A stretch of DNA of 64,000 nucleotides from an uncultured bacterium. Lineage in GTDB: Bacteria; Joyebacterota; Joyebacteria; Joyebacterales; Joyebacteraceae. The stretch's first letter is position 1. The number at the start of each line of letters is the position of its first letter. The notes under the pieces were generated by a model, which searched no databases, was not told the origin of the DNA, and saw only the letters and a program-made list of their open reading frames with translations. The translations under genes and the position numbers were made by a program. This document shows, one piece after another, positions 6,116 to 34,400 of the stretch. The stretch spans positions 1,030 to 65,029 of the forward strand of contig CAZEXP010000005.1 of assembly GCA_964516845.1 (NCBI GenBank). The letters run 5' to 3'.

Positions 6116-6583
6116 GTGAAGGCGCGCAACTACATGACCCGCGACGTTGTGACGGTCGGTCGTTCGACGAACATCGCCGAGATCGCGCGGCTCCTGCGGA
6201 CGCACAACATCACAGGCGTGCCCGTCGTGGACGATGACGGACACCTTCTCGGCGTGGTGACGCATGAGGAACTCATCAACATATTTCTGCCGCACTACCT
6301 GTCGATGTTCGATGATCTGGCGTTCCTCGACGACCTCAGCGCCATCGAGGCGCAGACGATGTCGGAGATCGAGCCGTCGCTCTTTCTCGCCGAGGATATC
6401 ATGCATGTCGATCCGCATACCGTGGGCCCCGACACTTCGATGATGAAGGTGGCAGCCGTTATGTTGAACAACAAGCACGTGCTCCTGCCCGTGGTCGATG
6501 ATGACAACCGTGTTGTGGGCGTCATCAACAGGAGCGCAGTGAGTTCCGCCTTCACGGGCGCCGCATCAGAGGAGGGGCGATGA
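6116..6583 (+). CDS. CBS-domain pair protein
   Basis: Two CBS motifs: ARNYMTRDVVTV...GVPVVDDDGHLLGVVT and LPVVDDDNRVVGVI. Confidence 0.9.
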   Translation: MKARNYMTRDVVTVGRSTNIAEIARLLRTHNITGVPVVDDDGHLLGVVTHEELINIFLPHYLSMFDDLAFLDDLSAIEAQTMSEIEPSLFLAEDIMHVDPHTVGPDTSMMKVAAVMLNNKHVLLPVVDDDNRVVGVINRSAVSSAFTGAASEEGR

Positions 6584-9500
6584 CCGACGCGCTGAGACGT
6601 ATTCTTCTGTCTGCCCGCCGCGTCGTTGCGCCTGCGGCCTTGATCCCGCTGGCGTTCCTTGTCTCCGCGCCCGCGTCTGCTCCCGCATCTGCGGCCGCGT
6701 CAGCGCTCTCGCCTGAACTCCTGTCGTCCGATGAGGGCGGCATCTATCTTCGGCTTGCCGTCGGTGACCCGACCATATCGACATTCATCGTCGATGGTGT
6801 CGAGTACTCGATCGTCACGCTTCCCGGGGCGAGTTCGACAGGCGAGCCCGGGATGCCTGAACTTCCTTGCGTGCGCGCCGTCCTGGGCGTGCCTGAGTGC
6901 GACGCTGTCGATCTCGAGGTCACACCCGGAGTCACGCGCCGGACGGGCGGCATCCGCGTGCTTCCCGCTCCCGGCATCTTCGACGCCGGCGAGGGGGAGC
7001 TCTCCCGCTACCCGCGGGTCGAATCAGACTCGTACGCGTCATCCGGGATCTGGCCCGAGCGGCCCGCGCGTGTGACCGCTCCGCGGTGGCTGGGGCCGCA
7101 GCGCACGGTCACCGTCGAGCTGTACCCGTGCCGCTTCGAGCCTTCGACCGGCGAACTCCTTGTTCACGAGACGCTCGATGTTGTGCTGCGATTCCGTGGG
7201 CTCAGGTCCACGCGTGGCGAGGACGGCTCGCCCGCTCGCCTGCGCCCGAGCCAGAAGCGCCTGCTCGACACAACGCTCCTCAATGCGGAGGGCGCACGAT
7301 CGTGGCTGCGCACCGGGCCGCTGAGCAACCGGCGGCGTCCGGACGACTACTACTCGACGTCGGAGAACTGGATTCGCCTGCGCGTCACCGACCGCGGTTT
7401 CCACCGCGTCGGGTACAGCGACATCGATGGCGTGGGTGTCACCGCTTCGATCATCGACCCGGCGACCTTCCGTGTCTTCACGGGTGGCGGCCTGCTTCTT
7501 CCCGAGGCGTTCGATGCTCCGCGCCCCGACTGGATGCAGGAGTGCACCATCATCGTCGATGATGGCGGCGACGGGAGCTTCGACGCCGGTGACGGCGTCG
7601 TGTTCTACGCTCTCGCGGAGGACGGCTGGGCGGACGAGTACGGCATCGTCGATCCCGACGAGCCTCACACCGAGCATCACTTCGCGAGTGAGAACATCTA
7701 CTGGTTGACCTGGGAGGATGAAGGTACATCGTCCGGATTCTCCTCGGCGCCGCTGAGGATGGCCCAGGACGATCTTCAGAATTCTCCGACGCCCATCTCC
7801 GTGGACGACCACTTCGCGCGCGCCCATTTTGAGCGGAACATCGTGATCAAGGAGGGGCGCGCCGATAACTGGTACTGGCACGACATGGGGCAGAGCGAGG
7901 ACTGGCGGTACTTCCATGAGCAGCTCGAGGGGGTCGTGACGGACTCACTGGGCGCGCTCCGCGCGCACATCGACGGGAACTCATCGACAGGCGGCGTCTA
8001 CCCCGATCATCATGTCCGCTTCCTGCTTAACGACGCGCTTGCCTACGACGCCGAGTGGGACGCGTACCAGCCGCTGTACTTCGAATCGAGCGGCCTGTCG
8101 ATCAACGAGGGCTACAACACGTTCGCGGTCAACATCCCGCACGACGTTCCCGGAGTCGATGACGAGGCGATCCTCATCGACTGGTTCGAGATTCTGTACT
8201 GGCAAACGCTTGCGCCCGCGGACGATCAGATCGTCTTCGGGAGTTCGGGCAGGACGGGCGTGCTGGAGTTCTCGGTCGACGGGTTCTCCACGTCCGACGT
8301 CACGGCCTTCAAGGTCGTTGACCAGTACACGGTTCTGACCGTCCCCGGCGTGTCGTCACGGCAGGGAGGGGACCGTGCGGTCACCGTGACGTTTCAGGAC
8401 GATGTGGCGGACACCGCTTCATACGGGGTCGTCAGCGGAGACGGCTATCTGACGCCGGTCATCGAACTCGACACATTCGTCGACCTGAGGACTCCGACGG
8501 ACGACGACTACATCATCATCGCCCATGACGATCTCTACGATCAGGCGCTGCGGTTGAAGGCGCACCGGGAGAGCAACGCGGGCGGCGGCTTCGACGTGCG
8601 CCTCGTGCGCGTCTCGGATGTGTATGACGAGTTCTCGTGGGGTCTCGTCGACGCGACGGCCATCCGCGACTACCTCAAGTTCACGTGGGAGACCGCGGCG
8701 AATCCGCCGACCCACGTCGTGCTCGTCGGAGACGGTACGGTGGATCCGCGGCAGTACTCGGCATCGAGTCTGAGGACGTACATCCCCGTGCACTATACGC
8801 ACATCGGCGGGAATTCGGCTTCGCCGTCCTACTGGCCGACCGAGTTCTGGTACACGGGATTCGACGCGATCTACGAATACATTCCCGGCATGGCGCTCGG
8901 TCGTCTGACGGCCAACTCCGTCAACGAACTCTCCACGATGCTCGACAAGATCATTGACTATGACACGGACCACGGGGCCGCGCTCTGGCGGAACACCGCG
9001 ATCCTCGCGGGTGACGACGAGTACACCTACGACAACGATACCGAGTACTTCCACGCGGAACAGACCGAGAGGCTCTCGGATGAGATCCTGCCGTTCGCGA
9101 TCGACCGTGAGAAGCTCTTCCTCATGGAGTACGAGAAGGTCGGGCAGTTCAAGCCGGCCGCGCGCGCGGCGTTCCTCGATCTCTGGAACAAGGGTGCCGT
9201 CCTCGTGAACTACACCGGGCATGGCAGCGAGATCGTCATGGCACATGAGTCGCTCTTCTACTTCGATGATGTCACCCTCCTTACGAACAGGCCGGGGCTG
9301 CCGCTGTTCTTCGCCGCGTCGTGCCGACTGAATAAGTTCGATAGAATGACCGTCGATTCACTGGGTGAGGCGCTCGCCAAGTCGGCCAACGGCGGGTCGA
9401 TCGTTTCCATCGGAAGCACGAGGGATTCGGGGGCGTCCCAGAACGCTGCATTCAACAGGGACATCCTCGGCGCCATGTTCGGCAATCAGCAGGCTGATCC

Positions 9501-10650
9501 GGCTGCGGTACTCGATGTCGGGCTGGCCGTTCAGGCGGGCGTTGCGCTGTCCGGCAGCTATTCCGCGTGGCTCAACGACACGAGGTTCATGATCGTCGGG
9601 GATCCGGCGATCGTTCTGGCGACACCCACGGGGAGCGGGAGCCTCTCTTCGGATGAGGTGGACCCGATGATGCGGCGCGACGAGGTCGAACTCGATGGAA
9701 CGTGTTCCGGATCGACCGCGGACCTCGATGGCATAGCCGTCGTACGCGTGAGCGAGTCCGCCGACACCACCGGGTACACGCTGCCGTCCAACGGTCATCA
9801 CGTCGACTACGCGTTGCCCGGGGACACCGTGTTCAATGGTCCCGTGACCGTCTCGAATGGTGCGTTCGACGCTCGGTTCATAGTCTCCTATGCCACGGCC
9901 GAGGGGCCCTACGGCAGGATTCGGGCATACTGCTACGACGATGGCACGGATGGCGCGATCTCAATGGAGAACGTTGCGATCGCGGACAGCGTAGAGACGA
10001 CGGACGCTGTCGGTCCCACGATCACGATCGAGTTCGCGGGCGGCGCCACCTCGGTGCTGCCGGGCGCGGAACTGATGATGGCGATCTCGGACGAGAGCGG
10101 CATCAACACCGTGACCGGCGGCTACGGCGCCCCGATTTCGCTTGTTCTCGACGGAGGCGATTCGACAGATGTTACGGGGGCCTTCGTGTACGATGTGGGA
10201 AGCCACCAGTCGGGCACGGTCGATTTCGATCTGCCGAGCCTGTCGTTCGGGGCGCACACGATCGAACTCGCCGCGAGCGACAACATGGGCAATCGGTCGA
10301 GCGGTCAGCTCTGGTTCGAGATCGTGTCTGCTGCGGACTTCGAGGTCCGGAACGTGGCCAACTACCCGAATCCGTTCCCGGATGGGGGAGAGACCGGGAC
10401 GTGGCTGATGTTCCAGCTTCCGGGACCGGCCGACGTGCGTATCGATATCTTCACGGTCGGCGGTCGGAGGATTCTCACACTGGATGACATTCCGGCGAGC
10501 GCCGGCGCGAATCAGGTCTACTGGGACGGGCGAGACGTCGTGGGTGACGAGCTGGCGAACGGCGTGTACCTTTTCAGGATTCACGCGGTCTCCGAGAGCT
10601 ATCGCGGCGACAAGGCGGAGGCCATAGGGCGGGCTGTCATCATGCGGTAG
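6580..10650 (+). CDS. porU: PorU-like C25 (gingipain-family) sortase with propeptide and a C-terminal Ig-like secretion-signal domain
   Basis: Signal peptide; C25 propeptide (PGMPELP); NYTGHG (His881) and FFAASC (Cys915) dyad; PorU-type D-x-x-GP-x-I region; CTD with NYPNPF...LANGVYLFRI...GRAVIMR. Confidence 0.85.
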   Translation: MTDALRRILLSARRVVAPAALIPLAFLVSAPASAPASAAASALSPELLSSDEGGIYLRLAVGDPTISTFIVDGVEYSIVTLPGASSTGEPGMPELPCVRAVLGVPECDAVDLEVTPGVTRRTGGIRVLPAPGIFDAGEGELSRYPRVESDSYASSGIWPERPARVTAPRWLGPQRTVTVELYPCRFEPSTGELLVHETLDVVLRFRGLRSTRGEDGSPARLRPSQKRLLDTTLLNAEGARSWLRTGPLSNRRRPDDYYSTSENWIRLRVTDRGFHRVGYSDIDGVGVTASIIDPATFRVFTGGGLLLPEAFDAPRPDWMQECTIIVDDGGDGSFDAGDGVVFYALAEDGWADEYGIVDPDEPHTEHHFASENIYWLTWEDEGTSSGFSSAPLRMAQDDLQNSPTPISVDDHFARAHFERNIVIKEGRADNWYWHDMGQSEDWRYFHEQLEGVVTDSLGALRAHIDGNSSTGGVYPDHHVRFLLNDALAYDAEWDAYQPLYFESSGLSINEGYNTFAVNIPHDVPGVDDEAILIDWFEILYWQTLAPADDQIVFGSSGRTGVLEFSVDGFSTSDVTAFKVVDQYTVLTVPGVSSRQGGDRAVTVTFQDDVADTASYGVVSGDGYLTPVIELDTFVDLRTPTDDDYIIIAHDDLYDQALRLKAHRESNAGGGFDVRLVRVSDVYDEFSWGLVDATAIRDYLKFTWETAANPPTHVVLVGDGTVDPRQYSASSLRTYIPVHYTHIGGNSASPSYWPTEFWYTGFDAIYEYIPGMALGRLTANSVNELSTMLDKIIDYDTDHGAALWRNTAILAGDDEYTYDNDTEYFHAEQTERLSDEILPFAIDREKLFLMEYEKVGQFKPAARAAFLDLWNKGAVLVNYTGHGSEIVMAHESLFYFDDVTLLTNRPGLPLFFAASCRLNKFDRMTVDSLGEALAKSANGGSIVSIGSTRDSGASQNAAFNRDILGAMFGNQQADPAAVLDVGLAVQAGVALSGSYSAWLNDTRFMIVGDPAIVLATPTGSGSLSSDEVDPMMRRDEVELDGTCSGSTADLDGIAVVRVSESADTTGYTLPSNGHHVDYALPGDTVFNGPVTVSNGAFDARFIVSYATAEGPYGRIRAYCYDDGTDGAISMENVAIADSVETTDAVGPTITIEFAGGATSVLPGAELMMAISDESGINTVTGGYGAPISLVLDGGDSTDVTGAFVYDVGSHQSGTVDFDLPSLSFGAHTIELAASDNMGNRSSGQLWFEIVSAADFEVRNVANYPNPFPDGGETGTWLMFQLPGPADVRIDIFTVGGRRILTLDDIPASAGANQVYWDGRDVVGDELANGVYLFRIHAVSESYRGDKAEAIGRAVIMR

Positions 10651-10761
10651 CCGGGCGGGCGCGGATCGACCAGGTGCGACCACGGCCGCGCGGATGCGTC
10701 AAAACGAGATAGTATACTCACGGATACCATGCGAGACACCGATTGAAGGGAGAAACCGGGA

Positions 10762-11748
10762 ATGAGAAGTACGAAGCTACTCATGGCGGTCATGGTTCTC
10801 GCGGCGATTGCGAGCGCCGCATCCGCTCAGGTCTCCATCGGCGGAGCGCAGTCTCTCTACATCCAGCCCGGGGCGCGGCCGGCCGGCATGGGGGACTGCT
10901 TCGTCGCAATCGCCGATGACGCCAGTGCCGTGTCGTGGAATCCCGCGGGTCTTGCGTGGGTCGACGGACGTGTCAATTTCACGCTCATGCACACGCAGCT
11001 TGTTCCCGACTGGGACGACGTCTACTACGAGTACGCGGCCTACGCGCAGCGCGTGGAGGGCCTCGGCACGATCGGAGCGTCGCTCATCTATCTGACGTAC
11101 GGTGAGCAGGCCGCCACCGATCCCGACAGTCCCGATGTGGTCGGTTACTTCGACAGCTACGAGATCATTCCGTCCGTCTCGTACGGGACGGAGATCAGCG
11201 AGAACCTCGCCGTCGGTCTCAATCTGAAATTCGTCTACGTCAACCTCGCGCCGGCGCAGTACACGCAGGACCAGCAGAAGGGTTCCGGCTCGACGTTCGC
11301 GGCGGACCTTGGCGTTCTCTATCGGATGTGGGAGGATCGCCTGCGACTGGGCGCCGCCGTTCAGCACGTGGGTCCGCGGATCGCCTACATCGATGAAGAG
11401 CAGTCCGACCCGCTCCCGCGCAATCTCAAGATGGGCGTGGCGTACAAGGTCCTGTCGGATGAAATGAACGTGCTTCTCGTCACGGCCGAGTACAACAAGT
11501 CGCTCGTCATCATCGAGGACATCGCGGACCAGTCGGTCGGCGTGATCATGAATTTCGGAGCCGAGTACCGGTACTACGACCTCTTCGGTCTGAGGGGTGG
11601 ATACGTCCACGATGAGGACGGAGAGGTGAAGGGTTTTGCCTTCGGGATGGGCCTGAAGTACCACAATTGGGCGTTCGACGTGGCGAACGTGCCGCAGGCC
11701 GAGGGCCTCAAGCGGCCGTTCCGATTCTCTCTGAGCGCTACGTTCTAG
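10762..11748 (+). CDS. porV: PorV/PorQ-family outer-membrane protein
   Basis: L-x-I-x-PGARPAGMGD, DDASAVSWNPAGLA, DPLPRNLKMG and a C-terminal Phe; lies directly after porU. Confidence 0.85.
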   Translation: MRSTKLLMAVMVLAAIASAASAQVSIGGAQSLYIQPGARPAGMGDCFVAIADDASAVSWNPAGLAWVDGRVNFTLMHTQLVPDWDDVYYEYAAYAQRVEGLGTIGASLIYLTYGEQAATDPDSPDVVGYFDSYEIIPSVSYGTEISENLAVGLNLKFVYVNLAPAQYTQDQQKGSGSTFAADLGVLYRMWEDRLRLGAAVQHVGPRIAYIDEEQSDPLPRNLKMGVAYKVLSDEMNVLLVTAEYNKSLVIIEDIADQSVGVIMNFGAEYRYYDLFGLRGGYVHDEDGEVKGFAFGMGLKYHNWAFDVANVPQAEGLKRPFRFSLSATF

Positions 11749-11765
11749 ATCGCCATCGAGACTTC

Positions 11766-11812
11766 GCGCTGGTGGAGGCGGACCGTCCGGCGGGCGGGCC
11801 GTTCGCCAGCGC
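11766..11812 (+). terminator. Long imperfect GC hairpin (terminator or transcript-stabilising stem)
   Basis: GCGCTGGTGGA pairs with TTCGCCAGCGC, plus an inner stem (about 21 bp in total, with G-U pairs); only a weak U-tract follows. Confidence 0.45.
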
Positions 11813-11872
11813 TTCTCACAGGCGGATGACCGCAGGTGGCCGAGCGTGGCTGTGGCCGGGCACAACGGGGGG

Positions 11873-14800
11873 ATGGTGACGAGGTTGAACACGCGAGCGA
11901 AAGCGCTGAGGACCCTGCTGGTGATCGTAGCCGTCGCGCTCATGCTTCCGGTGGTCGCTTCCGCGGCGTCGACACTTCTTTGCACCAAGGACACCGAGCG
12001 GCCGCTCGAGGAGCTGCAGGCGGTCAACGCGAAGTACTTCCCGAGTCAGCCCGCGCGTGTGAGCGCCATCGAACTGGCGCGGCAGCGGGGGCGCGGGGAC
12101 GGCGAGCGGACGACGCTTCGGTTCCTGGCGCTCCGTGTCGAGTTCCAGCCTGACGACGATCCCCTGAGCACGGGCGACGGGACGTTCAACTACTCGCCAT
12201 GGGATGGCTCGACGTTCGATGGACCGCCGCACGACCGCGAGTACTTTGAGCTTCACATGACAGCGGCCAAGAGCTACTTCGAGTCGGTCTCGCACGGCGA
12301 GGTCGAGATCGAGTTCACGGTGGCTCCCGCCGACTCGCACGCGGCGTACGTGCTCCCGTATGAGATGGGCTACTATCACGATTACTCGGACGCGCAGGTC
12401 TGGTACGTCTCACAGGTCGAAGCGTTCACGCGGGACGCCTTCGCGGCGGCCGACACGACCGACTCGATCGACTTCTCGGAATACGACGGCTACGTCATCT
12501 TCTTCGCGGGCTCGGACTGGCAGAGCGACATCTACTACGATACGCCGTACGACCTGCCGGCGGCTCACATCACACTTGGGGAGCCGATCGTGGTCAACGA
12601 CGGCGCGCACGAGATCTGGAACGCGTCGCTGATGCCCGAGACCTCGAGCCAGGACGGTCTCACGGCGGTTCTCAACGGGACGCTGGTCCACGAGATGGGT
12701 CACGGCATCGGTCTTCCCGACCTCTACAACACATCGAATTTCTTTCCATCGATCGGCTACTGGGGCATCATGGACTCCGGCGGCCGCATCGGCATGAACA
12801 CGCCCTGGGGGTACGCGTACGGTCTGATCCCGGTGCCGCCGTGCGCCTGGTCGCTCGAGTACCTCGGGTGGACGGACCCCGTGGTCATCATTGAGGACTC
12901 CGAGAACCTCGAGGTCAAGGCCTCTGTCCTGAGGGGCGGCGGATACCGGACGTTCAAGATCCCGATCACGAGCACCGAGTACTACCTCGTTGAGAACCGG
13001 ATGGACGACATCGGCAAGGACGGGCTCGTCGCCATCGAACAGGAACGGGGCGTCGTGCTCGGTCCGGTCGACCCCGACTGTCAGCAGCAGATATGTCCCG
13101 TCAACAACGAGTACGACTTTCTGCTCCCGGGCCCCGGGATGCTCATCTATCACATTGACGACACTCGCGTGATTCCCGGACTGATGCCGTACGACGCGGT
13201 GAACTACGACCGCAACCGGAGGGGCGTCGCGGTCGAGGAGGCCGACGGCATTGAGGACCTCGGCGATGTCGGCAGTTTCTACTGGACGGGCAGCAGGTTT
13301 GATCCGTTCTTCGCGTCGAACAACGATTCGTTCTCGTACGACACGTTTCCATCGACCGACGACAATCTCGGCGCCAGGAGCTACATCTCGATCACGGGCA
13401 TCTCGGAACCGGACTCCATCATGACGATGGACGTCCGATTCAACCGCTGGAAGGACGGCTGGCCGATCCAGTTCGAGGGGGAGACGGCGGGGATCGCTCC
13501 GCGCGTTGCAGACCTCGATGGCGACGGCGACATGGAGGTCGTGCTCGCCACGACCGACGGCCTTGTCTATGCGTTCCATCACGACGGCTCGGCGGTGCTT
13601 CCAGACTGCGCCGGCCCGTCCGGCTTCATCGCGATCGCAGGCGGTGACATATCGCAGACTCCGGCGCTCGCGGACCTTGACGGAGACGGCCAGCTCGAGG
13701 TCGTGGTCGTTTCGGACGACGGCATGCTGCACGCGTGGCACGCGGTCGACAATGACGGGAACGGTCACGCCGACCCGGTCTCGGACCACTTCCCGGTCGA
13801 GATCGGCGGACCGGCGAGCGCCCCCCCGGTCGTGGCGGATCTTGACGAGGGCTTCGGTCTTGAGATCGCGGCGACCTCCCGGGGCGGCGATCTCGTCGTC
13901 GTGGATCAGGTCGGGCGCCCGGTCGGGACTTCGCCGTATTCGTTCGGCGCGCTCGTGCTCGACGACGTGACGATGGCGGCCGGAGACCTGGACGCCGACG
14001 CCGAACTGGAACTCGTGTTGTCGACGACGAACAGGGGATGGGTCATCGCGCTCAATGCGGACGGAACACCGCTTCCGGGCTGGCCCGTCGAGGTCGAAGG
14101 TTGGGAGCGCGAGGCTGTTGGCGTGCTCCTCGGCGATCTGGACCGCGGACGTGACGGACGACTCGACGTGATCGCCGTCGGTTCGGACGGACGCGCGTTT
14201 GCGTGGGATCGTCGCGGCGAGGAACTCGCGGGGTGGCCTGTCGATCTCGGTGAAGAGGTCGTGGGGCGGTCCTCTCTGGGTGATCTCGACGGCGATGGTT
14301 TCCTCGAGCTTGTCGTTCCGGTCGGCTCGACGCAGGTTCGCGGCATCCGGGCGAACGGCACGGCGGTCGAGAACTGGCCATTGAGTTTCTCATCGGGTGA
14401 CAGCACCCGCAGCTCCTCAGCCTCGCCCCTGGTCGGGGATATCGATGGTGACGGTGGGATCGACGTGGTCATGAGCGGCCCCGGAGGCGGCGTCTACGCG
14501 TGGGACGGTCTCACCGGCGACGTACTGCCGGGATGGCCGCTCTCGTCGGATGTCGCGCTCGGCACGCCGTGGATCGGGGACGCGGAGGGCGACGGAGAGA
14601 TTGACCTCCTGATTGCGGGTCGCAGCGGTCGCGCGCTCTTCTACCGCCTGCCGTACGATGCGTCTCCGGGCGCAATCGTCTGGCCGACGGAGGCAGGGAA
14701 TCCGGCGGGGACCGGTTGTTTCGCGGACTCGCTCCTCGGCGAGGAGTTCGAGGAGACGCCTACGCTCATGGTGCAGGATCGCACGTACTGCTATCCGAAC

Positions 14801-15073
14801 CCGGCGCGCGAGGAGGACATCACGATCAGGGTCTATCTCGAGGAGTCGATGGACATCCTCGTGGAGATCATGGACGTCACGGGTCAGATCGTTGAGACGC
14901 TCCGTGCCGACGGTGTTCCAACGGCCAACGAGCTGGTCTGGGAGACCGACGGCGTGGCGAGCGGTCTCTATCTGGTCCGAGTCGAGGTCGGGTTCGAGAT
15001 GATCGATGTGTTCGGCGGCGGCATGGCCGGGCGCATTGAGGAGAAGCTGATGAAGGTCGCCCTGATTCGATAG
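11873..15073 (+). CDS. Secreted M6 (immune inhibitor A-like) metalloprotease with FG-GAP repeats and a T9SS-type CTD
   Basis: HEMGHGIGLPDLY, WGIMDSG and EYYLVENR motifs; about 8 DLDGDG-type repeats; CTD CYPNPA...VASGLYLVRV...KVALIR. Confidence 0.88.
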   Translation: MVTRLNTRAKALRTLLVIVAVALMLPVVASAASTLLCTKDTERPLEELQAVNAKYFPSQPARVSAIELARQRGRGDGERTTLRFLALRVEFQPDDDPLSTGDGTFNYSPWDGSTFDGPPHDREYFELHMTAAKSYFESVSHGEVEIEFTVAPADSHAAYVLPYEMGYYHDYSDAQVWYVSQVEAFTRDAFAAADTTDSIDFSEYDGYVIFFAGSDWQSDIYYDTPYDLPAAHITLGEPIVVNDGAHEIWNASLMPETSSQDGLTAVLNGTLVHEMGHGIGLPDLYNTSNFFPSIGYWGIMDSGGRIGMNTPWGYAYGLIPVPPCAWSLEYLGWTDPVVIIEDSENLEVKASVLRGGGYRTFKIPITSTEYYLVENRMDDIGKDGLVAIEQERGVVLGPVDPDCQQQICPVNNEYDFLLPGPGMLIYHIDDTRVIPGLMPYDAVNYDRNRRGVAVEEADGIEDLGDVGSFYWTGSRFDPFFASNNDSFSYDTFPSTDDNLGARSYISITGISEPDSIMTMDVRFNRWKDGWPIQFEGETAGIAPRVADLDGDGDMEVVLATTDGLVYAFHHDGSAVLPDCAGPSGFIAIAGGDISQTPALADLDGDGQLEVVVVSDDGMLHAWHAVDNDGNGHADPVSDHFPVEIGGPASAPPVVADLDEGFGLEIAATSRGGDLVVVDQVGRPVGTSPYSFGALVLDDVTMAAGDLDADAELELVLSTTNRGWVIALNADGTPLPGWPVEVEGWEREAVGVLLGDLDRGRDGRLDVIAVGSDGRAFAWDRRGEELAGWPVDLGEEVVGRSSLGDLDGDGFLELVVPVGSTQVRGIRANGTAVENWPLSFSSGDSTRSSSASPLVGDIDGDGGIDVVMSGPGGGVYAWDGLTGDVLPGWPLSSDVALGTPWIGDAEGDGEIDLLIAGRSGRALFYRLPYDASPGAIVWPTEAGNPAGTGCFADSLLGEEFEETPTLMVQDRTYCYPNPAREEDITIRVYLEESMDILVEIMDVTGQIVETLRADGVPTANELVWETDGVASGLYLVRVEVGFEMIDVFGGGMAGRIEEKLMKVALIR

Positions 15074-15133
15074 GTCCAAGCCGACGGAACGTCGGCCGTG
15101 ATCCGGTCGCCGTGCGGCTTTGCGGGAGACGTG

Positions 15134-15922
15134 ATGAGACTTCTGGCAGCGTTCATGATCACACTGATAGCGGTGCCCGCGCTCTGCGCGGGGCCGACTG
15201 CTGTGACCGCACGCGTGATGCCCGAGGATCTCGTGCTCATCTCGTCGCTCGGCTTCGCTGAGGAGCTTCTCGAGACGGACGCGGAGAACGGGGGAGCCTC
15301 CGGCGGCACGAGGACGTCGCACGACCCGCCGAAGATGATGCTCCTGTCTCTGGCCGTGCCCGGCGCCGGCCAGATCGTGCAAGGGGAGAAGCGCGGCTAC
15401 ATCTACCTCCTGCTCGAGGCGGCCATGTGGGGCGGCTTCTACTACCTGGACAAGCAGGGTCTCGACGAGCGGGGTGATTACGAGGACTTCGTCATCGACA
15501 ACTGGAATCTGGCCGCGTACCAGGATTTCTTCAATGAGAACTGCCTGGAAGACCCGCAGGACTACGCCAACGGCTGCCGGCCGCTGGCGCCGGAGGGCTC
15601 GCAGGAGTTCTACGAGGACGTCGGCAAATACGATGTCTACTGGCCGTGGTGGAGCGGGGACGGCTCGCCGAACGACGTCACCGCCGAGGACATGGCGCTC
15701 AGGGACGAATACTGGGGGATGCGCAAGGACAGCAACTCGCATCTGAGGGAGGCGCGCTACTTCATGATGGCCGCGCTGCTCAACCACGTTGTGAGCGCTC
15801 TTGATTCGTTCTTCATCGCCAGGGCGCCCGCGGAAGCGGAGCCGCCGGCCGACCTGGGTCTTGAGTTCGGCGTGCCCGATGGACCGATCGGGCTGACCTG
15901 TGCACTCGTTGCGAGGTACTGA
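15134..15922 (+). CDS. Hypothetical exported/membrane protein (DUF5683/TM2-like SxxxPGxGQ motif), paralog A
   Basis: Signal peptide; LLSLAVPGAGQ, LLLEAAMW and LLNHVVSALD motifs shared with the next gene. Confidence 0.65.
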   Translation: MRLLAAFMITLIAVPALCAGPTAVTARVMPEDLVLISSLGFAEELLETDAENGGASGGTRTSHDPPKMMLLSLAVPGAGQIVQGEKRGYIYLLLEAAMWGGFYYLDKQGLDERGDYEDFVIDNWNLAAYQDFFNENCLEDPQDYANGCRPLAPEGSQEFYEDVGKYDVYWPWWSGDGSPNDVTAEDMALRDEYWGMRKDSNSHLREARYFMMAALLNHVVSALDSFFIARAPAEAEPPADLGLEFGVPDGPIGLTCALVARY

Positions 15923-15932
15923 GGAGCTGCAG

Positions 15933-16760
15933 ATGAGTCGATGCTTCGTGCCCCTTTGTGTGATCCTGATACTGGTCTCGACGCAGGCCGCTCTCGCCGA
16001 ATCGTATTTTCCGTCCGGCGCGTCCGGTGGCCTCGCCAGGCAGGGGCTCTCGCTCCGAGCCGACGACCCGATCTCCGATCTGGCTCCGGAACAGCAGCCG
16101 AAGGAGCCCGTTCACGCAGCCGGCGGGCGTGAGGAGAAGAACCCGCTCGTCGCAATGCTCATGTCATTCGCCGTTCCCGGGTGGGGGGAGTTCTACACGG
16201 GGCACGACGGCCGCGGACGCGCGTTCATGGCGGCCGAGGGTGCGATCTGGATCGGGTACGCCTCGTACAGCGTGCAGGAGCGGATGCGGGTCGACGACTA
16301 TGAGGAGTACGTCTCGGTCTACCTGGACGTGGAGCAGGGCGCGGACCACACGTACTATGAGGATATTGCGGACTACATGCGCAGCGAGGGGTCCGACAGC
16401 TACAACGAAGACATCCGGAGCGAGGCGAGGAGCCTGTTTCCGGACGACCTCGACGCGCAGGAGCGCTACTTCGCGGAGCACGGTTACTTCGGCGGCGACG
16501 GATGGGACTGGGGAGATCGTGACCGGCTCGAGGAGTACCGCGAGCTTCGGCACGGGGCGTCGGTGTCATCACGCAACGCCTTCTACATGACCGGGCTTGC
16601 CGTGCTCAACAGGGCGCTCTCGGGTATCGACGCCGCGTGGATGGCGAGACGCCACAACGCCGGTCAGAGCGGGACCCCGGCGGTGAGGCTCTCGGTCGCA
16701 CCGGTGCCGGATGAGAACGGGCTGTGCGGCAGCCGCACGACGCTCGAGTTCTCCTTCTGA
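15933..16760 (+). CDS. Hypothetical exported/membrane protein, paralog B
   Basis: GAGGAG RBS before ATG 15933; signal peptide; LMSFAVPGWGE, AAEGAIW and VLNRALSGID motifs; ends LEFSF. Confidence 0.65.
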   Translation: MSRCFVPLCVILILVSTQAALAESYFPSGASGGLARQGLSLRADDPISDLAPEQQPKEPVHAAGGREEKNPLVAMLMSFAVPGWGEFYTGHDGRGRAFMAAEGAIWIGYASYSVQERMRVDDYEEYVSVYLDVEQGADHTYYEDIADYMRSEGSDSYNEDIRSEARSLFPDDLDAQERYFAEHGYFGGDGWDWGDRDRLEEYRELRHGASVSSRNAFYMTGLAVLNRALSGIDAAWMARRHNAGQSGTPAVRLSVAPVPDENGLCGSRTTLEFSF

Positions 16761-16763
16761 CAA

Positions 16764-16787
16764 CGCGGCGGGGTTTCTCCCGCCGCG
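16764..16787 (+). terminator. GC hairpin
   Basis: CGCGGCGGG-gtttct-CCCGCCGCG just after the stop at 16760; no clear U-tract. Confidence 0.4.
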
Positions 16788-16859
16788 CAGCATCCCCCTT
16801 TCGCGGAGCACGCCATGATGCTCGCACTGTTCCCGCCGCAGGCGACGCGACGGACGTCC

Positions 16860-17768
16860 ATGAGGCGTTGTCTCGATCTCGTGTTCATCGCGGTCATCAC
16901 TTCACTTGTTCTTCCACTTGCCGCGGCCGGCTCGGTGATCGCACTCGATCTCGTTGGGGAGATCGGTGGCGACGCATGGGACGTGGATGGTCCGACGGCG
17001 CTGGCCGTTGACCACCGGGGACGTCTGTACGTCGTCGACAGCGGTCACCATCGCGTGCTCGTGGTCGAGCCGGATGGCTCGATCGTCCGGGAGCTCGGCG
17101 GGTACGGGTGGGAAGAGGACAGCCTCGATCGTCCGCTCGACGTGGTCGTCGACCGCGGCCTGGCGACGTATGTCCTCGACGCGGGGAACCGGCGCGTCGT
17201 CGAGTACGATGCCGAGGGGAACTACCTCGGGGTTGTGCTCGACGAGGAACAGGTTGGGAACCCGGTCGGTCTGGAACTCGGTTCGGCCGGCGAACTCTAT
17301 GTCACTGACGCCGACGCGCAGATCGTCCGGGTCCACTCGCAGTTCGGGGAGCCGCTTGACCCGATAGGCAGCTTCGGCGGGGAGGGTGGCGGTCTCGTCG
17401 GTCCGACGCGCGTCGCCATGGGGCCGTCGCGCGTGCTGGCGATTGCCGACCCCGCGGCCGCCGTCGTCCTGCTCTACGACGAGTTCGGTTCGCCTCTTGC
17501 CCGGCTCTCGGGCACCGGGGAATTCACGCCATACGACATCATCTTCGATCCGCGCGGCAATCTCATCGTCGCGGACCCGCGCAACGGCACGGTCCTGGCG
17601 TTCGATTGCGCCGACGGCTCGGTCACCGCGGTCGCCGGTCGGGACCAGATGGGGTCTTCGGCTCTGCCTTCCGGGCTGGCGATCGATCGGACGGGGAGGC
17701 TTCTTGTCCTGGACGGAACCTCGGGTTGCGTGTTCATCTTCGCGCTCGAGTACGACACAAAGCACTAG
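16860..17768 (+). CDS. Secreted NHL-repeat beta-propeller protein
   Basis: Repeats such as PTALAVDHRGRLYVVDSGHHRV, PLDVVVDRG and PVGLELGSAGELYVTD; signal peptide from ATG 16860. Confidence 0.85.
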   Translation: MRRCLDLVFIAVITSLVLPLAAAGSVIALDLVGEIGGDAWDVDGPTALAVDHRGRLYVVDSGHHRVLVVEPDGSIVRELGGYGWEEDSLDRPLDVVVDRGLATYVLDAGNRRVVEYDAEGNYLGVVLDEEQVGNPVGLELGSAGELYVTDADAQIVRVHSQFGEPLDPIGSFGGEGGGLVGPTRVAMGPSRVLAIADPAAAVVLLYDEFGSPLARLSGTGEFTPYDIIFDPRGNLIVADPRNGTVLAFDCADGSVTAVAGRDQMGSSALPSGLAIDRTGRLLVLDGTSGCVFIFALEYDTKH

Positions 17769-20700
17769 ACCGCTTATCGGAGCGATCCTTGCCATCGCCC
17801 TTCTCGCCGCGTTCGTGACGACCGCGGGCGCCGGCACCCTGGCGAGGACGAGCGGGCGCCGCGTGGTCGATCTGACGGGGGTGGACCTCGCCGACGGGCG
17901 TGTCGCGCTTCCGGACTCGTTGATCGTCGCCGGCAGCGACACGGTGCTCGTCAGCGATCGTCCCGCCGAGCGGGGCGTCGACTACGTCCTGGACGTCTCC
18001 GCTTCCAGCCTTCGCTTCCTCCGCGACCTTCCGGATACCGCGCGCATATCTCTCAGCTACCTCTATATTCCCGGGGCTCTCGCCCGCGAGCAGCGATACG
18101 CGATGCTCGATGCCACGGGGGAACTCCCGAATGTGTTCGCCGCGCCGGAGAGCCTCGTGAGTCTGCGCATCGCGGAGCCCGATCGCGCACCCGTCGGGTC
18201 GGGTCTGAGGATAGGGGGCGCCAAGACGTTCGGTGTCAGCGTGGGCTCCGATCGGGACCTCAAGCTCGAGCAATCGCTCCGCCTGAACGTCGAGGGCCGG
18301 GTCGCCCGGGATGTGTCCGTCCGCGCGTATCTCTCAGACCAGAACACGCCATTGCTGCCCGAAGGGGACACGGAGGAGCTGCGCTCACTTGACAAGGTTC
18401 TCGTCGAGATCGAGGGCAAGGATGTCTCCGCAACGATGGGGGACATCGTGCTCGACATGACGTCGGGGAGTCTCCTGTCGATGCGTCGTGAACTGGCGGG
18501 TGTTATGGTGACGGGCAAGCGGGGTCCGCTCAGTGTCCTGCTCGCCGGCGCGCAGGCCTCGGGTGAGCAGACGACCGCGGCCTTCATTGGCGTTGAGGGG
18601 AAGCAGGGGCCGTATCTGCTCCCGAACGCGTCGGGCGCAGTCGGCGTCACGATCGTTGCGGGAAGCGAGCGCGTCTGGCTTGACGGCGCTCGGCTCAAAC
18701 GGGGGAGCGACAACGACTACGTCATCGACTACGCGTCCGGCGAGCTTCAGTTCTCGGAGACGCGGCCGATCACGGCCGAGAGCCGGATCGACGTGGACTA
18801 CGAATGCGCCACCTCCGATTTCGACCGCGACGTCTACGGGGGCACCGCCGGTCTCCGCTCCGCCGATGGGCGGATGGAGTTCGGCGCCGCATACTTCCGG
18901 GAGTCCGATGATGATTCGTCCCCGACGAGCGTGGACCTGTCCGACGACGATCTCGCACTGCTGGCCGCGGCCGGCGACGACATCGAACTGGCCCACGACG
19001 ACGGCGTCGATTCGGTCGGGTACGGGAACGGCGACTACGAGAGGCTGCCCGACGGGACGTTCGAGCACGCGGGCGCGGATTCCGGATCGTTCGAGCTCGA
19101 TTTCGAACGCTCTGACGGCGGCGACTACGCCTACGACTATGTCGCCGGGCATTACTACTATGCGGGTGAGGGGGTGGGGACACACCGGCTCGGGCGACAG
19201 CTGCCGCTTCCAACGGACGCGTCGCTGCTGGCGGTCAACGGGGCGGTGCGCCTCGAAGGCGGAGGGTTCGTCGAGGCCGAGGCCGCGCTGTCGACCTATG
19301 ACCGGAACACACTCTCCGACCTCGATGATGATGACAACCTCGGGAACGCCGGGGTCGTACGGCTCGAGGCGCCGTCGCTGACGGGCGGTGTCCTCGGGGA
19401 CTCGCGTCTGACGGCGTCCGCGGCAGGACGGCGCGTGGCGGGGAACTTCCGGGGGAACGGGCGGTTTCGCGAGACGGGCTATGAGGATCACTGGGAACTT
19501 CGCGGTCTCGAGGTTCCGACAGCCGAGCTCACGGGTGAGGGCACGCTGCGGTTCGACATGCCGGGCGGCGGGTCGGCCGAGGTCCGGCACGGGCGACTGG
19601 AGCGCGGTGACGCGCTGACCTCGATGCGGACGCGGTTCTCGGTCGAGGCATCACCGGCGGAGCGCGCTCGCGTCTGGCTGAGCGGCCGGATCGTTGACCT
19701 CGACTACACGGCGGCCGCGGACACGGCACTCACGCGGGAGCGGAGGCTCTACCGCGCGGGCGGCGACGTCACGCTGGGTCACGTGCGGCCGGGAGCGACC
19801 TGGACGAGCGATGAGGCGACCGAGGACGGCGTCGGGGAGCGCTACGACGAGTACGGCGTGACGCTGGCGAGCGCCGGTCTGAGGGGCGCCGGCCTGCGGG
19901 CAGGGTACGCGTATCGGATGACCGACCGGCGCGGGGAGTCGGACGACTGGTCGCGCGCGGCCGTGACGGCGACACAGACCTACGGCCTGGAGCTGACCCG
20001 CTGGGAGCCGCTCACGGTGGACGCGAGTGTCGTTCGTAGGAGGACCGACTTCGAGGACGGGCTCGCGGAGTCCGACACGCGTTCGGATCTGGCCCGCGTT
20101 CGGCTCGGTCACTCGTCGCTCGGCGGGGCCGTCCAGGGCGAGGTCCGATACGTCGTCACCACGACCGAGGTCGAGGAGAAGGAACGCTACGTCACCGAGG
20201 AGGACGGTGTCGAGGTGACGCGCATTATCTCCACCGGACGGTACCTGCCGGTGACCGATCTGAGCGCCGGGACGCGGTGGAGTTTCCGTCCCGGCTCGGG
20301 CGGTACGACGCCGTCGGGGCTTCCCGACCCGAGCGCGCTGCGGCGCTGGCTTGCGCGTTTCTCGTTCGAGACCGACCTCAAGCTGCGCGAGGCGACGACC
20401 ACCGATGAGAAGGAGCGGCTCTATCTGCTGGACCCGTCGGTCCTCCGCGGGGACGACACCGTCAGTGGGGAGCTCACCGGTCGCCACACGCTGAGATACG
20501 CCTCCGCCGGGGGGACGTTCGTGAGCCGTCTTGCGCTGCGGACGGCTGACGAGCTGGAGCGCGTCTATTCGAACTCGCCCGAGGAGCGGCGCGATCGGGA
20601 GGTCACGCTCGAGTTCAAGCTCGCCGCATCCCGAGGCCTGACCTATCGCGTCCAGGGCGAGGCAGGCGAGCGTCGCCGTGACTCCGAAGGCACGGTCGAC

Positions 20701-21099
20701 AGCTACGATCTTGATGTCAGGTCGCTTCTCGCCGAGGTCGCTCATCGCGGCTCCGGCGCGGTCGAGGTGCGGTTGACCGGCGTGTACGGGACCGAGGACG
20801 ACGCGGTGACCGGGGTCGCGGCCGATGTCTGGAAGCTCACGCCGGCCGTTACGTACCGGCTGAAGGGGCGCGGGTCGATCTCGGCCAGTCTCACCCGGTC
20901 GAGCGTGGCGGCCTCCGGCGGCGAGTTGCCGCGCTACATGGCCGAGGGACGGGTGGAGGGAGGGGCGGCCGATTGGCGGCTGTCGGCCGACTATCGCTTC
21001 AATCGATTCGTCACGGGCAATCTGAACTACACCGGGGAGCGGCGGCCCGGTTCCGACGATCGCCATACGGTCGATCTCAGAGTGAATGCGTTCTTCTAG
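17704..21099 (+). CDS. Large (~1130 aa) hypothetical outer-membrane barrel protein of FCB type
   Basis: In-frame TTG 17704 after GGGAGG; hydrophobic signal segment; GAKTFGVSVG...SLRLNVEG...LSDQNTPLLPEG and GKQGPY...GSERVWLDG...DYVIDY motifs; ends VNAFF. The start is uncertain. Confidence 0.75.
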   Translation: MSWTEPRVACSSSRSSTTQSTRPLIGAILAIALLAAFVTTAGAGTLARTSGRRVVDLTGVDLADGRVALPDSLIVAGSDTVLVSDRPAERGVDYVLDVSASSLRFLRDLPDTARISLSYLYIPGALAREQRYAMLDATGELPNVFAAPESLVSLRIAEPDRAPVGSGLRIGGAKTFGVSVGSDRDLKLEQSLRLNVEGRVARDVSVRAYLSDQNTPLLPEGDTEELRSLDKVLVEIEGKDVSATMGDIVLDMTSGSLLSMRRELAGVMVTGKRGPLSVLLAGAQASGEQTTAAFIGVEGKQGPYLLPNASGAVGVTIVAGSERVWLDGARLKRGSDNDYVIDYASGELQFSETRPITAESRIDVDYECATSDFDRDVYGGTAGLRSADGRMEFGAAYFRESDDDSSPTSVDLSDDDLALLAAAGDDIELAHDDGVDSVGYGNGDYERLPDGTFEHAGADSGSFELDFERSDGGDYAYDYVAGHYYYAGEGVGTHRLGRQLPLPTDASLLAVNGAVRLEGGGFVEAEAALSTYDRNTLSDLDDDDNLGNAGVVRLEAPSLTGGVLGDSRLTASAAGRRVAGNFRGNGRFRETGYEDHWELRGLEVPTAELTGEGTLRFDMPGGGSAEVRHGRLERGDALTSMRTRFSVEASPAERARVWLSGRIVDLDYTAAADTALTRERRLYRAGGDVTLGHVRPGATWTSDEATEDGVGERYDEYGVTLASAGLRGAGLRAGYAYRMTDRRGESDDWSRAAVTATQTYGLELTRWEPLTVDASVVRRRTDFEDGLAESDTRSDLARVRLGHSSLGGAVQGEVRYVVTTTEVEEKERYVTEEDGVEVTRIISTGRYLPVTDLSAGTRWSFRPGSGGTTPSGLPDPSALRRWLARFSFETDLKLREATTTDEKERLYLLDPSVLRGDDTVSGELTGRHTLRYASAGGTFVSRLALRTADELERVYSNSPEERRDREVTLEFKLAASRGLTYRVQGEAGERRRDSEGTVDSYDLDVRSLLAEVAHRGSGAVEVRLTGVYGTEDDAVTGVAADVWKLTPAVTYRLKGRGSISASLTRSSVAASGGELPRYMAEGRVEGGAADWRLSADYRFNRFVTGNLNYTGERRPGSDDRHTVDLRVNAFF

Positions 21100-21111
21100 C
21101 CGTTCGCGCAG

Positions 21112-22845
21112 ATGGGAGCCCCTGTGCTGAAGTCCAACCGGCTCACGGTCCTCGCAGCGCTCGTCGTCACGACGTGCGCGTTCGTCGCGGTCGCGACGGC
21201 GTCGGAGATGTTCCCGACGGTCGTCGGGAACGTGCGAGCGGAGGGGCATCAGAGTGTGAGCACGCGCGAACTCCTCGACGCGTTCGGCGTGGCGCGTGGC
21301 GATCCGCTCGACCCGGAGGCGCTGGCATCCGGGGCCGACTCGGTGCTCGCGCTCCTCGCCGCGAGCGGCAGTCCGTTCGCGTCCGTCCGCGTCGACTGGG
21401 ATGACGAGGATCCGGCCGGCGTTGTCGTTCGCGTGGAGGAGGCTCGAGGCGGGCGCATCGCCTCGGTCGCATTCGCCGGGAACACGGCGGTCGGGACGGG
21501 TGAACTCGAGCTGCTTGTCGCGGCTCAGTCGGGAAGACCAACGACGGCGGCCATGCTCGAGGGAGACGCGGCGTCGATCGCCGCCCGGTATGCGGAGCGG
21601 GGATACCCGCTTGCGGCCGTTCGCCCGACCGTATCGCTCGCCACGGATGAACCGGGCGGACTCCTGCTCGTCTACGAGATCAACGAGGGACTGGCGGTCA
21701 CGTTCGCGGACGTCCTTGTGGTCGGGAACAAACAGACCCGGGCCGAAGTCATCACACGGGAGACGGGCATCGTCCGCGGCGAGCCCTTCCGTCTCTCGGT
21801 GCTGGAGGACGTTCGACCGACGCTCGAGCGTCTGCCGTTCCTGGCATTCGTTGGGGAACCGGCCGTCGCCATCAATCGCGAGACCGGCACGGCCGATGTG
21901 GGGATCGAGGTCGGGGAGGCCCGCGCGAACCGGATCAGCGGCGTGCTGGGGTATGTCCCCACCACCGAGGGTGAGGGCGAATTCACGGGGCGGGCCGACA
22001 TCAGCCTGGGAAACATCGCGGGGACCGGCCGGAGGGCGCGGGCGACCTGGGAGAGGGTGCGCGACGGGCACGACCGGATCGCCTTCGACTACACCGAACC
22101 GTGGTTGTTCGGAGCCCCCATCGACGCGGGTGTCCGCGCCGAGCAGGTCAACCGCGACACGCTCTACTCGACGACGGAGGGCGACCTCTTCGTCACGGCT
22201 CGTTTCGGGACGCGGCTCGCCGTGACGTGGTCGGCCGGCGCGGAGCGGTACGTACCCGGCACGGGCGATGAGCCCTCAACCGACGGCTACCGCACGGCGC
22301 TCGAATTCACATACGACAGGACCGACAGTCCGCTCAATCCGACCCGAGGCGTCGAGTCGAGCGGTCGTCTCTTGTACGCCAGTGTCGAGGCCATCGAGGG
22401 GGATGCGTCGTATCGAACGGGCACGCTGAACGCGTCCGCGGCGGTGTACGTGCCCGTGCGGCGAGCTCAGGTCCTGGCGCTCGCGGCACGCGGCGCGGCG
22501 CTCACGTCGAGCGACGACGACGTTCCGCTCCATAAGCAGCTCGTCCTCGGAGGAGCGGGAAGCCTGCGCGGATACCGCGAAGAGCAGTTCCACGGGACGG
22601 TCACGGCCCTCGGCAGTCTGGAGTATCGGTTCATCTTCGGACGGTACGCACGTATCGCGGCCTTCCTCGACATCGGCCACTACTCCAGGGAGGGTTCCAA
22701 CCCCGTGTCGGAGACCAAGTTAGGCTACGGGGTCGGGTTGCGGGGGGAGACCCGATTGGGTATAATCGCCGTCGACTACGGCCTCGGTGAGGGAGACGGA
22801 TTCCTCGACGGCAAGCTCCACGTCGGCCTCATTCGCGAGTTCTGA
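21112..22845 (+). CDS. Omp85 (BamA/TamA-family) outer-membrane protein with POTRA domains
   Basis: POTRA segments (VAFAGN, LVVGNKQTRAEVITRE), LGGAGSLRGYREEQF lid loop and a terminal HVGLIREF. Confidence 0.88.
   Translation: MGAPVLKSNRLTVLAALVVTTCAFVAVATASEMFPTVVGNVRAEGHQSVSTRELLDAFGVARGDPLDPEALASGADSVLALLAASGSPFASVRVDWDDEDPAGVVVRVEEARGGRIASVAFAGNTAVGTGELELLVAAQSGRPTTAAMLEGDAASIAARYAERGYPLAAVRPTVSLATDEPGGLLLVYEINEGLAVTFADVLVVGNKQTRAEVITRETGIVRGEPFRLSVLEDVRPTLERLPFLAFVGEPAVAINRETGTADVGIEVGEARANRISGVLGYVPTTEGEGEFTGRADISLGNIAGTGRRARATWERVRDGHDRIAFDYTEPWLFGAPIDAGVRAEQVNRDTLYSTTEGDLFVTARFGTRLAVTWSAGAERYVPGTGDEPSTDGYRTALEFTYDRTDSPLNPTRGVESSGRLLYASVEAIEGDASYRTGTLNASAAVYVPVRRAQVLALAARGAALTSSDDDVPLHKQLVLGGAGSLRGYREEQFHGTVTALGSLEYRFIFGRYARIAAFLDIGHYSREGSNPVSETKLGYGVGLRGETRLGIIAVDYGLGEGDGFLDGKLHVGLIREF
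22738..22766 (+). promoter_or_regulatory. Candidate sigma70 promoter embedded in the Omp85 gene, upstream of ligA
   Basis: TTGCGG, 17-nt spacer, perfect TATAAT (22761-22766), built from codons rare for this GC level (CGA TTG GGT ATA). Confidence 0.55.
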
Positions 22846-22886: not shown

Positions 22887-24935
<2,049 letters not shown>

Positions 24936-25022
24936 TCCTCCGGACGTTCAGCTGGACCGCCCGGAGTGAGGATCATGCCCCCTCCGCACCATCATCACAG
25001 CAGCCAGAGGAATGGGGTTCCC

Positions 25023-29245: not shown

Positions 29246-29280
29246 TACGATTGACGCGGTGTTGCGGTCCCACGGGGGAT

Positions 29281-29368
29281 CGAGAGACGTCAGAGAATCC
29301 ATGGGCATCAGGTAGTCGAGATATCAGAGATTCGAGAGACATCAGAGAACCGAGAGACATCAGAGGAC
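29281..29368 (+). repeat. Four imperfect 16-18 nt AG-rich repeats in the hut leader
   Basis: CGAGAGACGTCAGAGAAT (29281), CGAGATATCAGAGATT (29317), CGAGAGACATCAGAGAAC (29333), CGAGAGACATCAGAGGAC (29351). Confidence 0.85.
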
Positions 29369-29395
29369 CGAAGGACAGCGTGGAGGTGTGAGGAG

Positions 29396-31060: not shown

Positions 31061-31065
31061 CCGAT

Positions 31066-33254: not shown

Positions 33255-33274
33255 GGCGGGGGGAAGGAGACACC

Positions 33275-33992: not shown

Positions 33993-34400
33993 ATGACCAG
34001 GTGGCTCGTAATAGCTATCGCGGCTCTCTTCCTCGCGGTCGGGTGCGCGCCCGTACCGGAAGGCGGGGACCCCGCCACCGACGGGGAATTCGGCACCTTC
34101 TCTCTGATCGACCACGCCGTGGCGCAGGGGAGGATCGACTACTCGACGGGCATGCTCTACAAGATCTACGCGCAGTACGATCCGATGAGTCTTCCTGAGG
34201 AGTACCAGAGCGACGCCATCGGGATGGTAGGGGCCCCTCTCGTCACCGAGATCGAGCGGAACTGGCACCGGATCCTGCCGGAACACCGGGCTGAGATCTC
34301 CCAGTACATCGAGCATCTGCTCGACATCGACGACAGTGAGACACAGCTTGACGACGTGACGCCCGACCGCCTCGACCAGGAACGGAATCGGATTGACTGA
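33993..34400 (+). CDS. Hypothetical lipoprotein
   Basis: AGGAGG RBS before ATG 33993; lipobox LAVG-C. Confidence 0.7.
   Translation: MTRWLVIAIAALFLAVGCAPVPEGGDPATDGEFGTFSLIDHAVAQGRIDYSTGMLYKIYAQYDPMSLPEEYQSDAIGMVGAPLVTEIERNWHRILPEHRAEISQYIEHLLDIDDSETQLDDVTPDRLDQERNRID

Follow-up and report, generated by a model that had tools for sequence, protein, structure and literature searches.

A 64-kb stretch of DNA from an uncultured bacterium (contig CAZEXP010000005.1 of assembly GCA_964516845.1; "the window" in the following) carries a run of eight genes (g1 to g8 in their 5' to 3' order) that form a conserved outer-membrane operon, in which type IX secretion system (T9SS) sorting enzymes are encoded next to a giant β-barrel protein (g7). 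The interpretation we favour, tentatively and as just short of probable, is that the operon consists of two modules working together, with the giant barrel as the conduit for exported cargo. Module A would be a T9SS-type cargo sorting unit of PorU sortase, PorV carrier barrel, an M6-like protease with a T9SS C-terminal domain (CTD) and a DUF5683-like pair, while module B would be a unit found throughout the Fibrobacterota-Chlorobiota-Bacteroidota (FCB) group, made up of a periplasmic NHL propeller, a barrel of ~38-40 modelled strands and an Omp85 protein with three POTRA domains. A functional link between the two is suggested by their joined order with overlapping genes, which persists across deeply divergent lineages, and the size and fold class of the barrel make a conduit role plausible. 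The T9SS has been described almost entirely from Bacteroidota, with its parts scattered around the genome and a 2400-aa SprA pore that needs a proton-driven motor. The locus suggests, without proving, a simpler relative of this system.

The original prediction had placed eight co-directional genes at 6580-22845, with a PorU dyad at His881/Cys915, an adjacent PorV, Ig-like YPNP...R tails on PorU and the M6 protease, and neither PorK/L/M/N, GldK-N nor full-length SprA in the window, and it was borne out on these points. All eight open reading frames (ORFs) lie on the + strand with the expected identities and are tightly packed, with intergenic gaps of 12-111 nt or else overlaps. The product of g1 scored 505 bits against the PorU model NF033707 (cut-off 420), contains a complete C25 domain at aa 644-1013 (Peptidase_C25, PF01364, 1e-82) and aligned to Porphyromonas gingivalis PorU (PDB 6za2) with E 1e-40. 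H881 (YTGHG) and C915 (ASC) fall on the AGHG His and ATC Cys of 6za2, which we take to be the catalytic pair. Likewise, g2 scored 238 bits against the PorV-family model NF033709 (cut-off 90) and 84 bits against PF19572, with Flavobacterium johnsoniae PorV as the best PDB match (6h3i_F, 2.9e-24); it is shorter than that protein (328 vs 402 aa) and, with 175 bits, stays under the cut-off of 250 for the strict PorV equivalog NF033710. PorU has its own Ig-like CTD at aa ~1276-1356, its tail and that of g3 both follow the pattern YPNP...G.Y...K/R...R, and the CTD profile matched exactly these two ORFs of the whole window (g3, 6e-39; PorU, 1e-23). The PorU and PorV genes are unremarkable representatives of known families and have not been discussed before in this phylum. 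Of the large ORFs that were scanned over the 64 kb, none matched PorK/L/M/N, GldK-N, SprA or any T9SS family beyond PorU, PorV and CTD, and the window ORFs without a family match likewise showed no similarity to T9SS families.

Conservation of the block was assessed across 87 loci by tblastn and iterated profiles; the species-genome scan for barrel loci used a 12-sequence alignment as query, and loci with at least 8 kb upstream of the barrel (n=55) were regarded as informative for PorV. The closest named relatives are Candidatus Eisenbacteria at ~50% identity, placing the host in a non-Bacteroidota FCB lineage as had been supposed. The downstream genes, proposed beforehand as dedicated components of a T9SS-related module, are syntenic with porU/porV in the full block and the same order in Eisenbacteria (L008, L010, L054), Krumholzibacteriia (L006, L069, L087) and Zixibacteria (L011) and also in a very divergent clade with barrels 22-28% identical to g7 (L015, L019, L171). 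The block minus the M6 gene was found in Latescibacterota (L047, L083) and on one Eiseniibacteriota chromosome (together L047, L048 and L083), where PorU-PorV-g4-g5-NHL-barrel-Omp85 is kept. PorV lies upstream of the barrel gene in 13/55 informative loci, 10 of these 13 have an M6-like gene, and all 13 contain g4/g5, while none of the 55 has g4/g5 without PorV. Thus, PorU, PorV and the DUF5683-like pair travel together in 13/13 loci, optionally with the M6-like gene, and since they never occur apart, g4 and g5 are the only downstream genes that behave as dedicated PorU/PorV partners.

The other downstream genes follow a wider distribution. Of 69 informative loci, 43 have an NHL gene directly upstream of the barrel gene, and 36 of 68 have an Omp85 gene downstream of it; in most lineages the trio has no PorU/PorV nearby. 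Because it mostly stands without PorU/PorV and amid conserved housekeeping genes, NHL-barrel-Omp85 is a broader FCB envelope module and not a private PorU/PorV accessory. The proposal of dedicated downstream components is thus supported in part, for synteny and for g4/g5, and not for NHL-barrel-Omp85. At E<=1e-3 the barrel family comprises 5967 representative clusters, with lengths almost always of 1050-1200 aa, and it is present in >584 species genomes, with carriers in Zixibacteria, Gemmatimonadota, Calditrichota, KSB1, LCP-89, Latescibacterota, Krumholzibacteriia and Ignavibacteriales, including the cultured Rosettibacter primus (Ignavibacteriales).

The start of the giant barrel gene at position 17704 is supported by a TTG codon four bases 3' of GGAGG, by the proper signal peptide that it yields and by a 65-nt overlap with the end of g6. 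The protein matched no Pfam family even at E 10. An AlphaFold2 model built from 53 relatives (pLDDT 85, pTM 0.74) predicts a small N-terminal β-sandwich (aa 52-121), followed by ~38-40 long strands that begin at aa 167 and run to NAFF at the C-terminus, with a second small β-sandwich as an inserted module (aa 300-350) and a further insert at aa 408-504. This modelled strand count equals or exceeds the 36 strands of SprA, the largest solved single-chain barrel (PMC10994853), and a barrel superfamily of at least 40 strands, which may or may not be the g7 family, is mentioned in a preprint (10.1101/2021.02.17.431615). Moreover, the top four Foldseek matches of the model were SprA structures (E 1e-10 to 2e-9). 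On the level of sequence, g7 reached 24 bits over 55 aa against the SprA model TIGR04189 (cut-off 200; SprA length ~2300-2500 aa), which is the sole NCBIfam family matched by all 12 barrel relatives tested, in each case via this ~55-aa module only. Searches of PDB sequences with g7 and its family profile gave marginal matches only (E 0.2-0.8), the SprA module among them, a 46-aa SprA fragment as query recovered merely tiny fragments from frameshift-ridden contigs, and tblastn with Flavobacterium-type SprA found nothing in the 87 related loci. The giant barrel resembles SprA in kind, with homology unproven and sequence similarity confined to a generic module of ~50 aa.

Three other identities for g7 were considered and rejected: LptD, as no N-terminal OstA-like domain was matched and an LptDE structure appeared only at Foldseek rank 48; a TonB-dependent receptor, as no plug domain was matched; and TamB, as DUF490/AsmA was not matched and g7 is a β-barrel whose C-terminus has a Phe signal. 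Within the barrel family, conservation is highest in LSDQNTPLxPEGxTEEL (18313-18390, g7 aa ~204-229), which sits in a loop modelled as disordered (pLDDT <50) that is a candidate partner-binding or plug loop.

Table 1. Genes of the PorU/PorV-giant barrel block, with window coordinates and the matches on which their assignments are based.
Gene and product	Coordinates	Strand	Basis
g1 PorU, T9SS C-terminal signal peptidase/sortase, 1356 aa	6580..10650	+	NF033707, PF01364, 6za2 alignment, CTD profile
g2 PorV-family outer-membrane barrel, 328 aa	10762..11748	+	NF033709, PF19572, PDB 6h3i_F
g3 M6-like metalloprotease with FG-GAP repeats and type A CTD	11846..15073	+	NF052323, PF05547, TIGR04183, motif
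g4 DUF5683-like protein, g5 paralog	15098..15922	+	BLASTP vs g5, sub-threshold DUF5683 match
g5 DUF5683-like protein	15900..16760	+	AlphaFold2 model, orthologs, PorU/PorV co-occurrence
g6 exported NHL-repeat β-propeller, 317 aa	16815..17768	+	PF01436
g7 giant outer-membrane β-barrel, 1131 aa	17704..21099	+	AlphaFold2 model, Foldseek, C-terminal NAFF
g8 Omp85-family protein, three POTRA domains, 577 aa	21112..22845	+	PF07244 x3, PF01103

The DUF5683-like proteins are paralogous to each other (27% identity, E 7e-12, BLASTP). Translation of g4 probably starts at the ATG at 15134 (262 aa, the length also called on the source contigs) and that of g5 at the ATG at 15933 (275 aa). Their scores against DUF5683 (PF18935), 14.0 and 12.6 bits, are both under the gathering threshold of 26.7; the positional orthologs in Krumholzibacteria (L006, L007) exceed it with 29.2 and 32.4 bits, and several Eisenbacteria homologs of g5 carry PF18935. 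The AlphaFold2 model of g5 (pLDDT 73) contains, besides a signal peptide and a disordered linker, a helical bundle in which two helices are very long, and its C-terminus is a β-hairpin ending in TLEFSF that, in the model, looks like an outer-membrane β-signal. Compared with PDB folds, this model gave no match better than E 0.28, and a literature search on DUF5683 found no relevant paper. In the Zixibacteria locus (L011), ~3 kb are inserted between g4 and g5.

The M6-like protease (g3, likely start ATG at 11873) exceeds the cut-offs of PF05547 (23.8 bits, cut-off 22) and of the type A CTD model TIGR04183 (27.2, cut-off 23), contains FG-GAP repeats and remains below TIGR03296 (84.5 bits, 110.8) and NF052323 (391 bits, cut-off 600, N-terminal half). 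From its retained zinc site, HEMGHGIGLPD at aa 282, it is predicted to be catalytically intact. The M6-like orthologs at the same position retain HExxHxxGxxD, except for the Zixibacteria ortholog (L011:751-3834), which is without the HExxH motif. The protease may be cargo or a PorZ-like partner; identity with PorZ itself was rejected, as the CTD alone matches.

The propeller (g6) is exported without a lipobox and matches NHL repeats (PF01436, 1.7e-18). The Omp85 protein (g8) matches PF07244 at three stretches and PF01103 with 5.7e-24 (86 bits), in line with the Omp85 superfamily; with 135 bits against the BamA equivalog TIGR03303 (cut-off 297) and 24 against TamA (cut-off 625), it is neither BamA nor TamA by the NCBI cut-offs.

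Under the coupled reading, Sec would take the cargo over the inner membrane, PorV would bind the cargo CTD at the giant barrel, which would act as outer-membrane conduit in the manner of SprA, and PorU would then cut off the CTD and fix the cargo to the surface. The Omp85 protein and the propeller might insert or stabilise the giant barrel, like BamA and BamB. Several observations weigh against this interpretation. Within the 64-kb window no energy source (PorLM) is in view. The SprA matches have low TMq values (0.23-0.27), with TonB-dependent receptors close behind, the ~55-aa module shared with SprA also resembles phage tail proteins and is not specific to SprA, and an hhalign comparison of the barrel with SprA reached a non-significant probability of 30% in the module only, the SprA set being 53 full-length Flavobacterium-type sequences of low diversity from a metagenome scan. 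Moreover, 42 of the 55 informative species loci contain the barrel without PorU/PorV within 10 kb, and its conserved neighbours across phyla are housekeeping genes (IF-2B, PfkB, UbiA, ArgRS, ligA); because they recur in this way, the barrel has the look of an old core gene passed on vertically. In Ignavibacteriales the barrel gene stands alone, 3' of genes for an ABC ATPase and four MacB/FtsX permeases and with no adjacent secretion genes. Melioribacter roseus and other Ignavibacteriales carry the g7-type barrel (L051, L057, L080), and since true SprA is reported for Melioribacter and Ignavibacterium (PMC11705866), the barrel is not a plain SprA substitute.

Alternatively, NHL-barrel-Omp85 might be a general FCB machine for envelope biogenesis or housekeeping (e.g. 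traffic of outer-membrane proteins, lipoproteins or lipids) with no direct role in CTD export. The porU-porV-M6-DUF5683 genes would then lie upstream in some phyla through co-regulation of envelope genes, and the cargo would exit through a canonical SprA encoded elsewhere. The absence of PorU/PorV beside the trio or the barrel alone in most lineages, the housekeeping neighbourhood, the permease genes and the reported SprA in Ignavibacteria, and the lack of demonstrable SprA homology beyond a generic module all speak for it, as does the very large and length-uniform barrel family, as expected of a core gene. On the other hand, neutral adjacency poorly explains why eight or seven genes that overlap or nearly abut keep the same order in no fewer than four named candidate phyla as well as in a clade with ~25% barrel identity, and the domain content of the barrel is not that of LptD, TamB or TonB receptors. 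We regard this explanation as only slightly less likely than the favoured one. It is far less probable, and indeed quite improbable, that the giant barrel passes large solutes or polymers, as a porin or uptake pore of unusual width, or anchors a surface layer, in either case unrelated to secretion and to membrane biogenesis. The Foldseek matches that follow SprA, namely transport barrels and the S-layer protein SlpA, would fit such a role, and no partner-specific domain is recognisable in the barrel. However, it contains neither a TonB-receptor plug nor an SLH domain, and its conserved pairing with an Omp85 protein and a periplasmic propeller, in several phyla together with PorU/PorV, would be unexpected for a porin.

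The reading with coupled modules and the barrel as conduit can also be taken further. The giant barrel would then be a half-size, cap-poor counterpart of SprA that, with PorV, PorU, the DUF5683-like pair and a private insertase of Omp85 and propeller, makes up a compact system for type IX-like export and attachment, maybe motorless and maybe ancestral, that would serve Eisenbacteria, Krumholzibacteria, Latescibacteria, Zixibacteria and further candidate phyla of the FCB group. This extended version we consider unlikely. If the barrel is the conduit, the locus would represent type IX export in a minimal form that is genetically self-contained and would offer a handle on the evolution of SprA and of the attachment complex. 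If it is not, NHL-barrel-Omp85 is still a widespread and uncharacterised FCB envelope machine with a barrel among the largest known. In either case the DUF5683-like pair are new candidate PorU/PorV partners, and the conserved operon is itself a new variant, with a giant barrel family without annotation, a private Omp85, an NHL propeller and the pair that tracks PorU/PorV. The sorting enzymes here are found in one compact cross-phylum operon, alongside four gene families that are unnamed in any database.

Some features of the related loci are worth recording. In the divergent clade with the full block, the PorV gene encodes ~860 aa rather than ~330 (L015:695-3268, L019:3-2354, L171:1233-3821) and seems to include a large additional stretch, through fusion or extension. 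CTD-bearing ORFs were found in barrel-carrying loci from many lineages, in favour of the coupled reading. In trio loci without PorU/PorV such genes are often close by (L026:1-1491, L036:2186-5671, L005:18462-22258), for example those for an S8 protease, for NIDO/β-helix proteins and, directly upstream of the NHL gene, for a protein with an Ig domain. In Rosettibacter primus (L057:3787-9589) and ~12 other Ignavibacteriales loci, the ABC ATPase gene and four tandem MacB_PCD/FtsX genes (Lol- or MacB-like) directly precede the barrel, with NUDIX, PfkB, IF-2B, RecO and HtrA genes 3' of it.

The block is bounded by a CBS-domain gene (end 6583) and ligA (start 22923), in a window of ~65% G+C. Housekeeping genes flank it on both sides, with dnaE, accA, a PTS-IIA gene and the CBS gene on the 5' side and ligA, thiC, a DinG-like helicase gene and hut genes on the 3' side, and the remaining 40 kb are likewise housekeeping. 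The order of ligA, the DinG-like helicase and histidine-utilisation genes after the block (22923-33901) is kept in Krumholzibacteria loci with a barrel only ~27% identical to g7 (L006, L007, L069, L170), so part of the block synteny between both groups may be inherited gene order. Farther downstream, an 824-aa ORF (34393-36867, +) without Pfam or NCBIfam match combines several N-terminal hydrophobic helices with a long Gly/Ala/Ser-rich region ending in FIWDFWN and lies where the AT skew is unusually negative (approximately -0.17 to -0.19 at 34-38 kb). It is overlapped on the opposite strand by a 639-aa ORF, so either strand may be the coding one. A promoter and terminator scan of the window returned fewer sites than chance predicts and was uninformative.

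Among the systems with which the locus can be compared, a T9SS has been suggested to exist in other FCB phyla (PMC11285876, in a review-style introduction), and our literature search found no paper linking the T9SS with Eisenbacteria, Krumholzibacteriota or Latescibacteria. Melioribacter and Ignavibacterium are reported to possess SprA, PorV and Plug and no other T9SS protein (PMC11705866). They share with the window, over its 64 kb, a non-Bacteroidia FCB background and T9SS outer-membrane parts in the absence of known motor genes, but have true SprA and no PorU, whereas the window has PorU and PorV and no SprA in view. The NCBIfam set of PorU2, PorV2 and a T9SS-dependent M6-like inactivated metalloprotease (NF052324, NF052325, NF052323), whose status as genome neighbours we infer from their names and consecutive numbers, is matched by a trio of PorU-like, PorV-like and M6-like proteins in the window. 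Nevertheless, all three window proteins stay under the cut-offs of these models, g1 passes the true PorU model, and g3, although related to NF052323, keeps HExxH and is not inactivated; a literature search on PorU2/PorV2 found nothing relevant. BamA-BamB and TamA resemble module B in the combination of POTRA domains with an Omp85 barrel (g8) and, for BamB, in the exported β-propeller (g6). Differences are the three POTRA domains of g8 and its scores, which reach the cut-off of neither BamA nor TamA, the NHL type of the g6 propeller and its lack of a lipobox, and the absence of a TamB/DUF490 gene from the window.

Compared with SprA/Sov (PDB 6h3i, 6h3j, 8gl6, 8gl8), g7 is much smaller (1131 vs ~2400 aa), without most of SprA's extra-barrel mass. 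Nevertheless, it too is predicted to be a single-chain giant barrel, with a similar or larger modelled strand count, it shares the small module GSxxVxxxGxxLxxGxDYxxDYxxG, and its gene lies in an operon with PorV. The attachment complex of P. gingivalis (PorU-PorV-PorQ-PorZ) differs from the window in its PorQ and PorZ, of which the window has no homolog; in their place are an M6-like FG-GAP/CTD protease with HExxH kept and a pair of helical proteins of DUF5683-like type. The PorV of the window is short and under the PorV equivalog cut-off, and the host is Eisenbacteria-like, not Bacteroidota. The window resembles the complex in a PorU with the aligned His and Cys and its own CTD, in an adjacent PorV-family barrel and in a neighbouring type A CTD protein.

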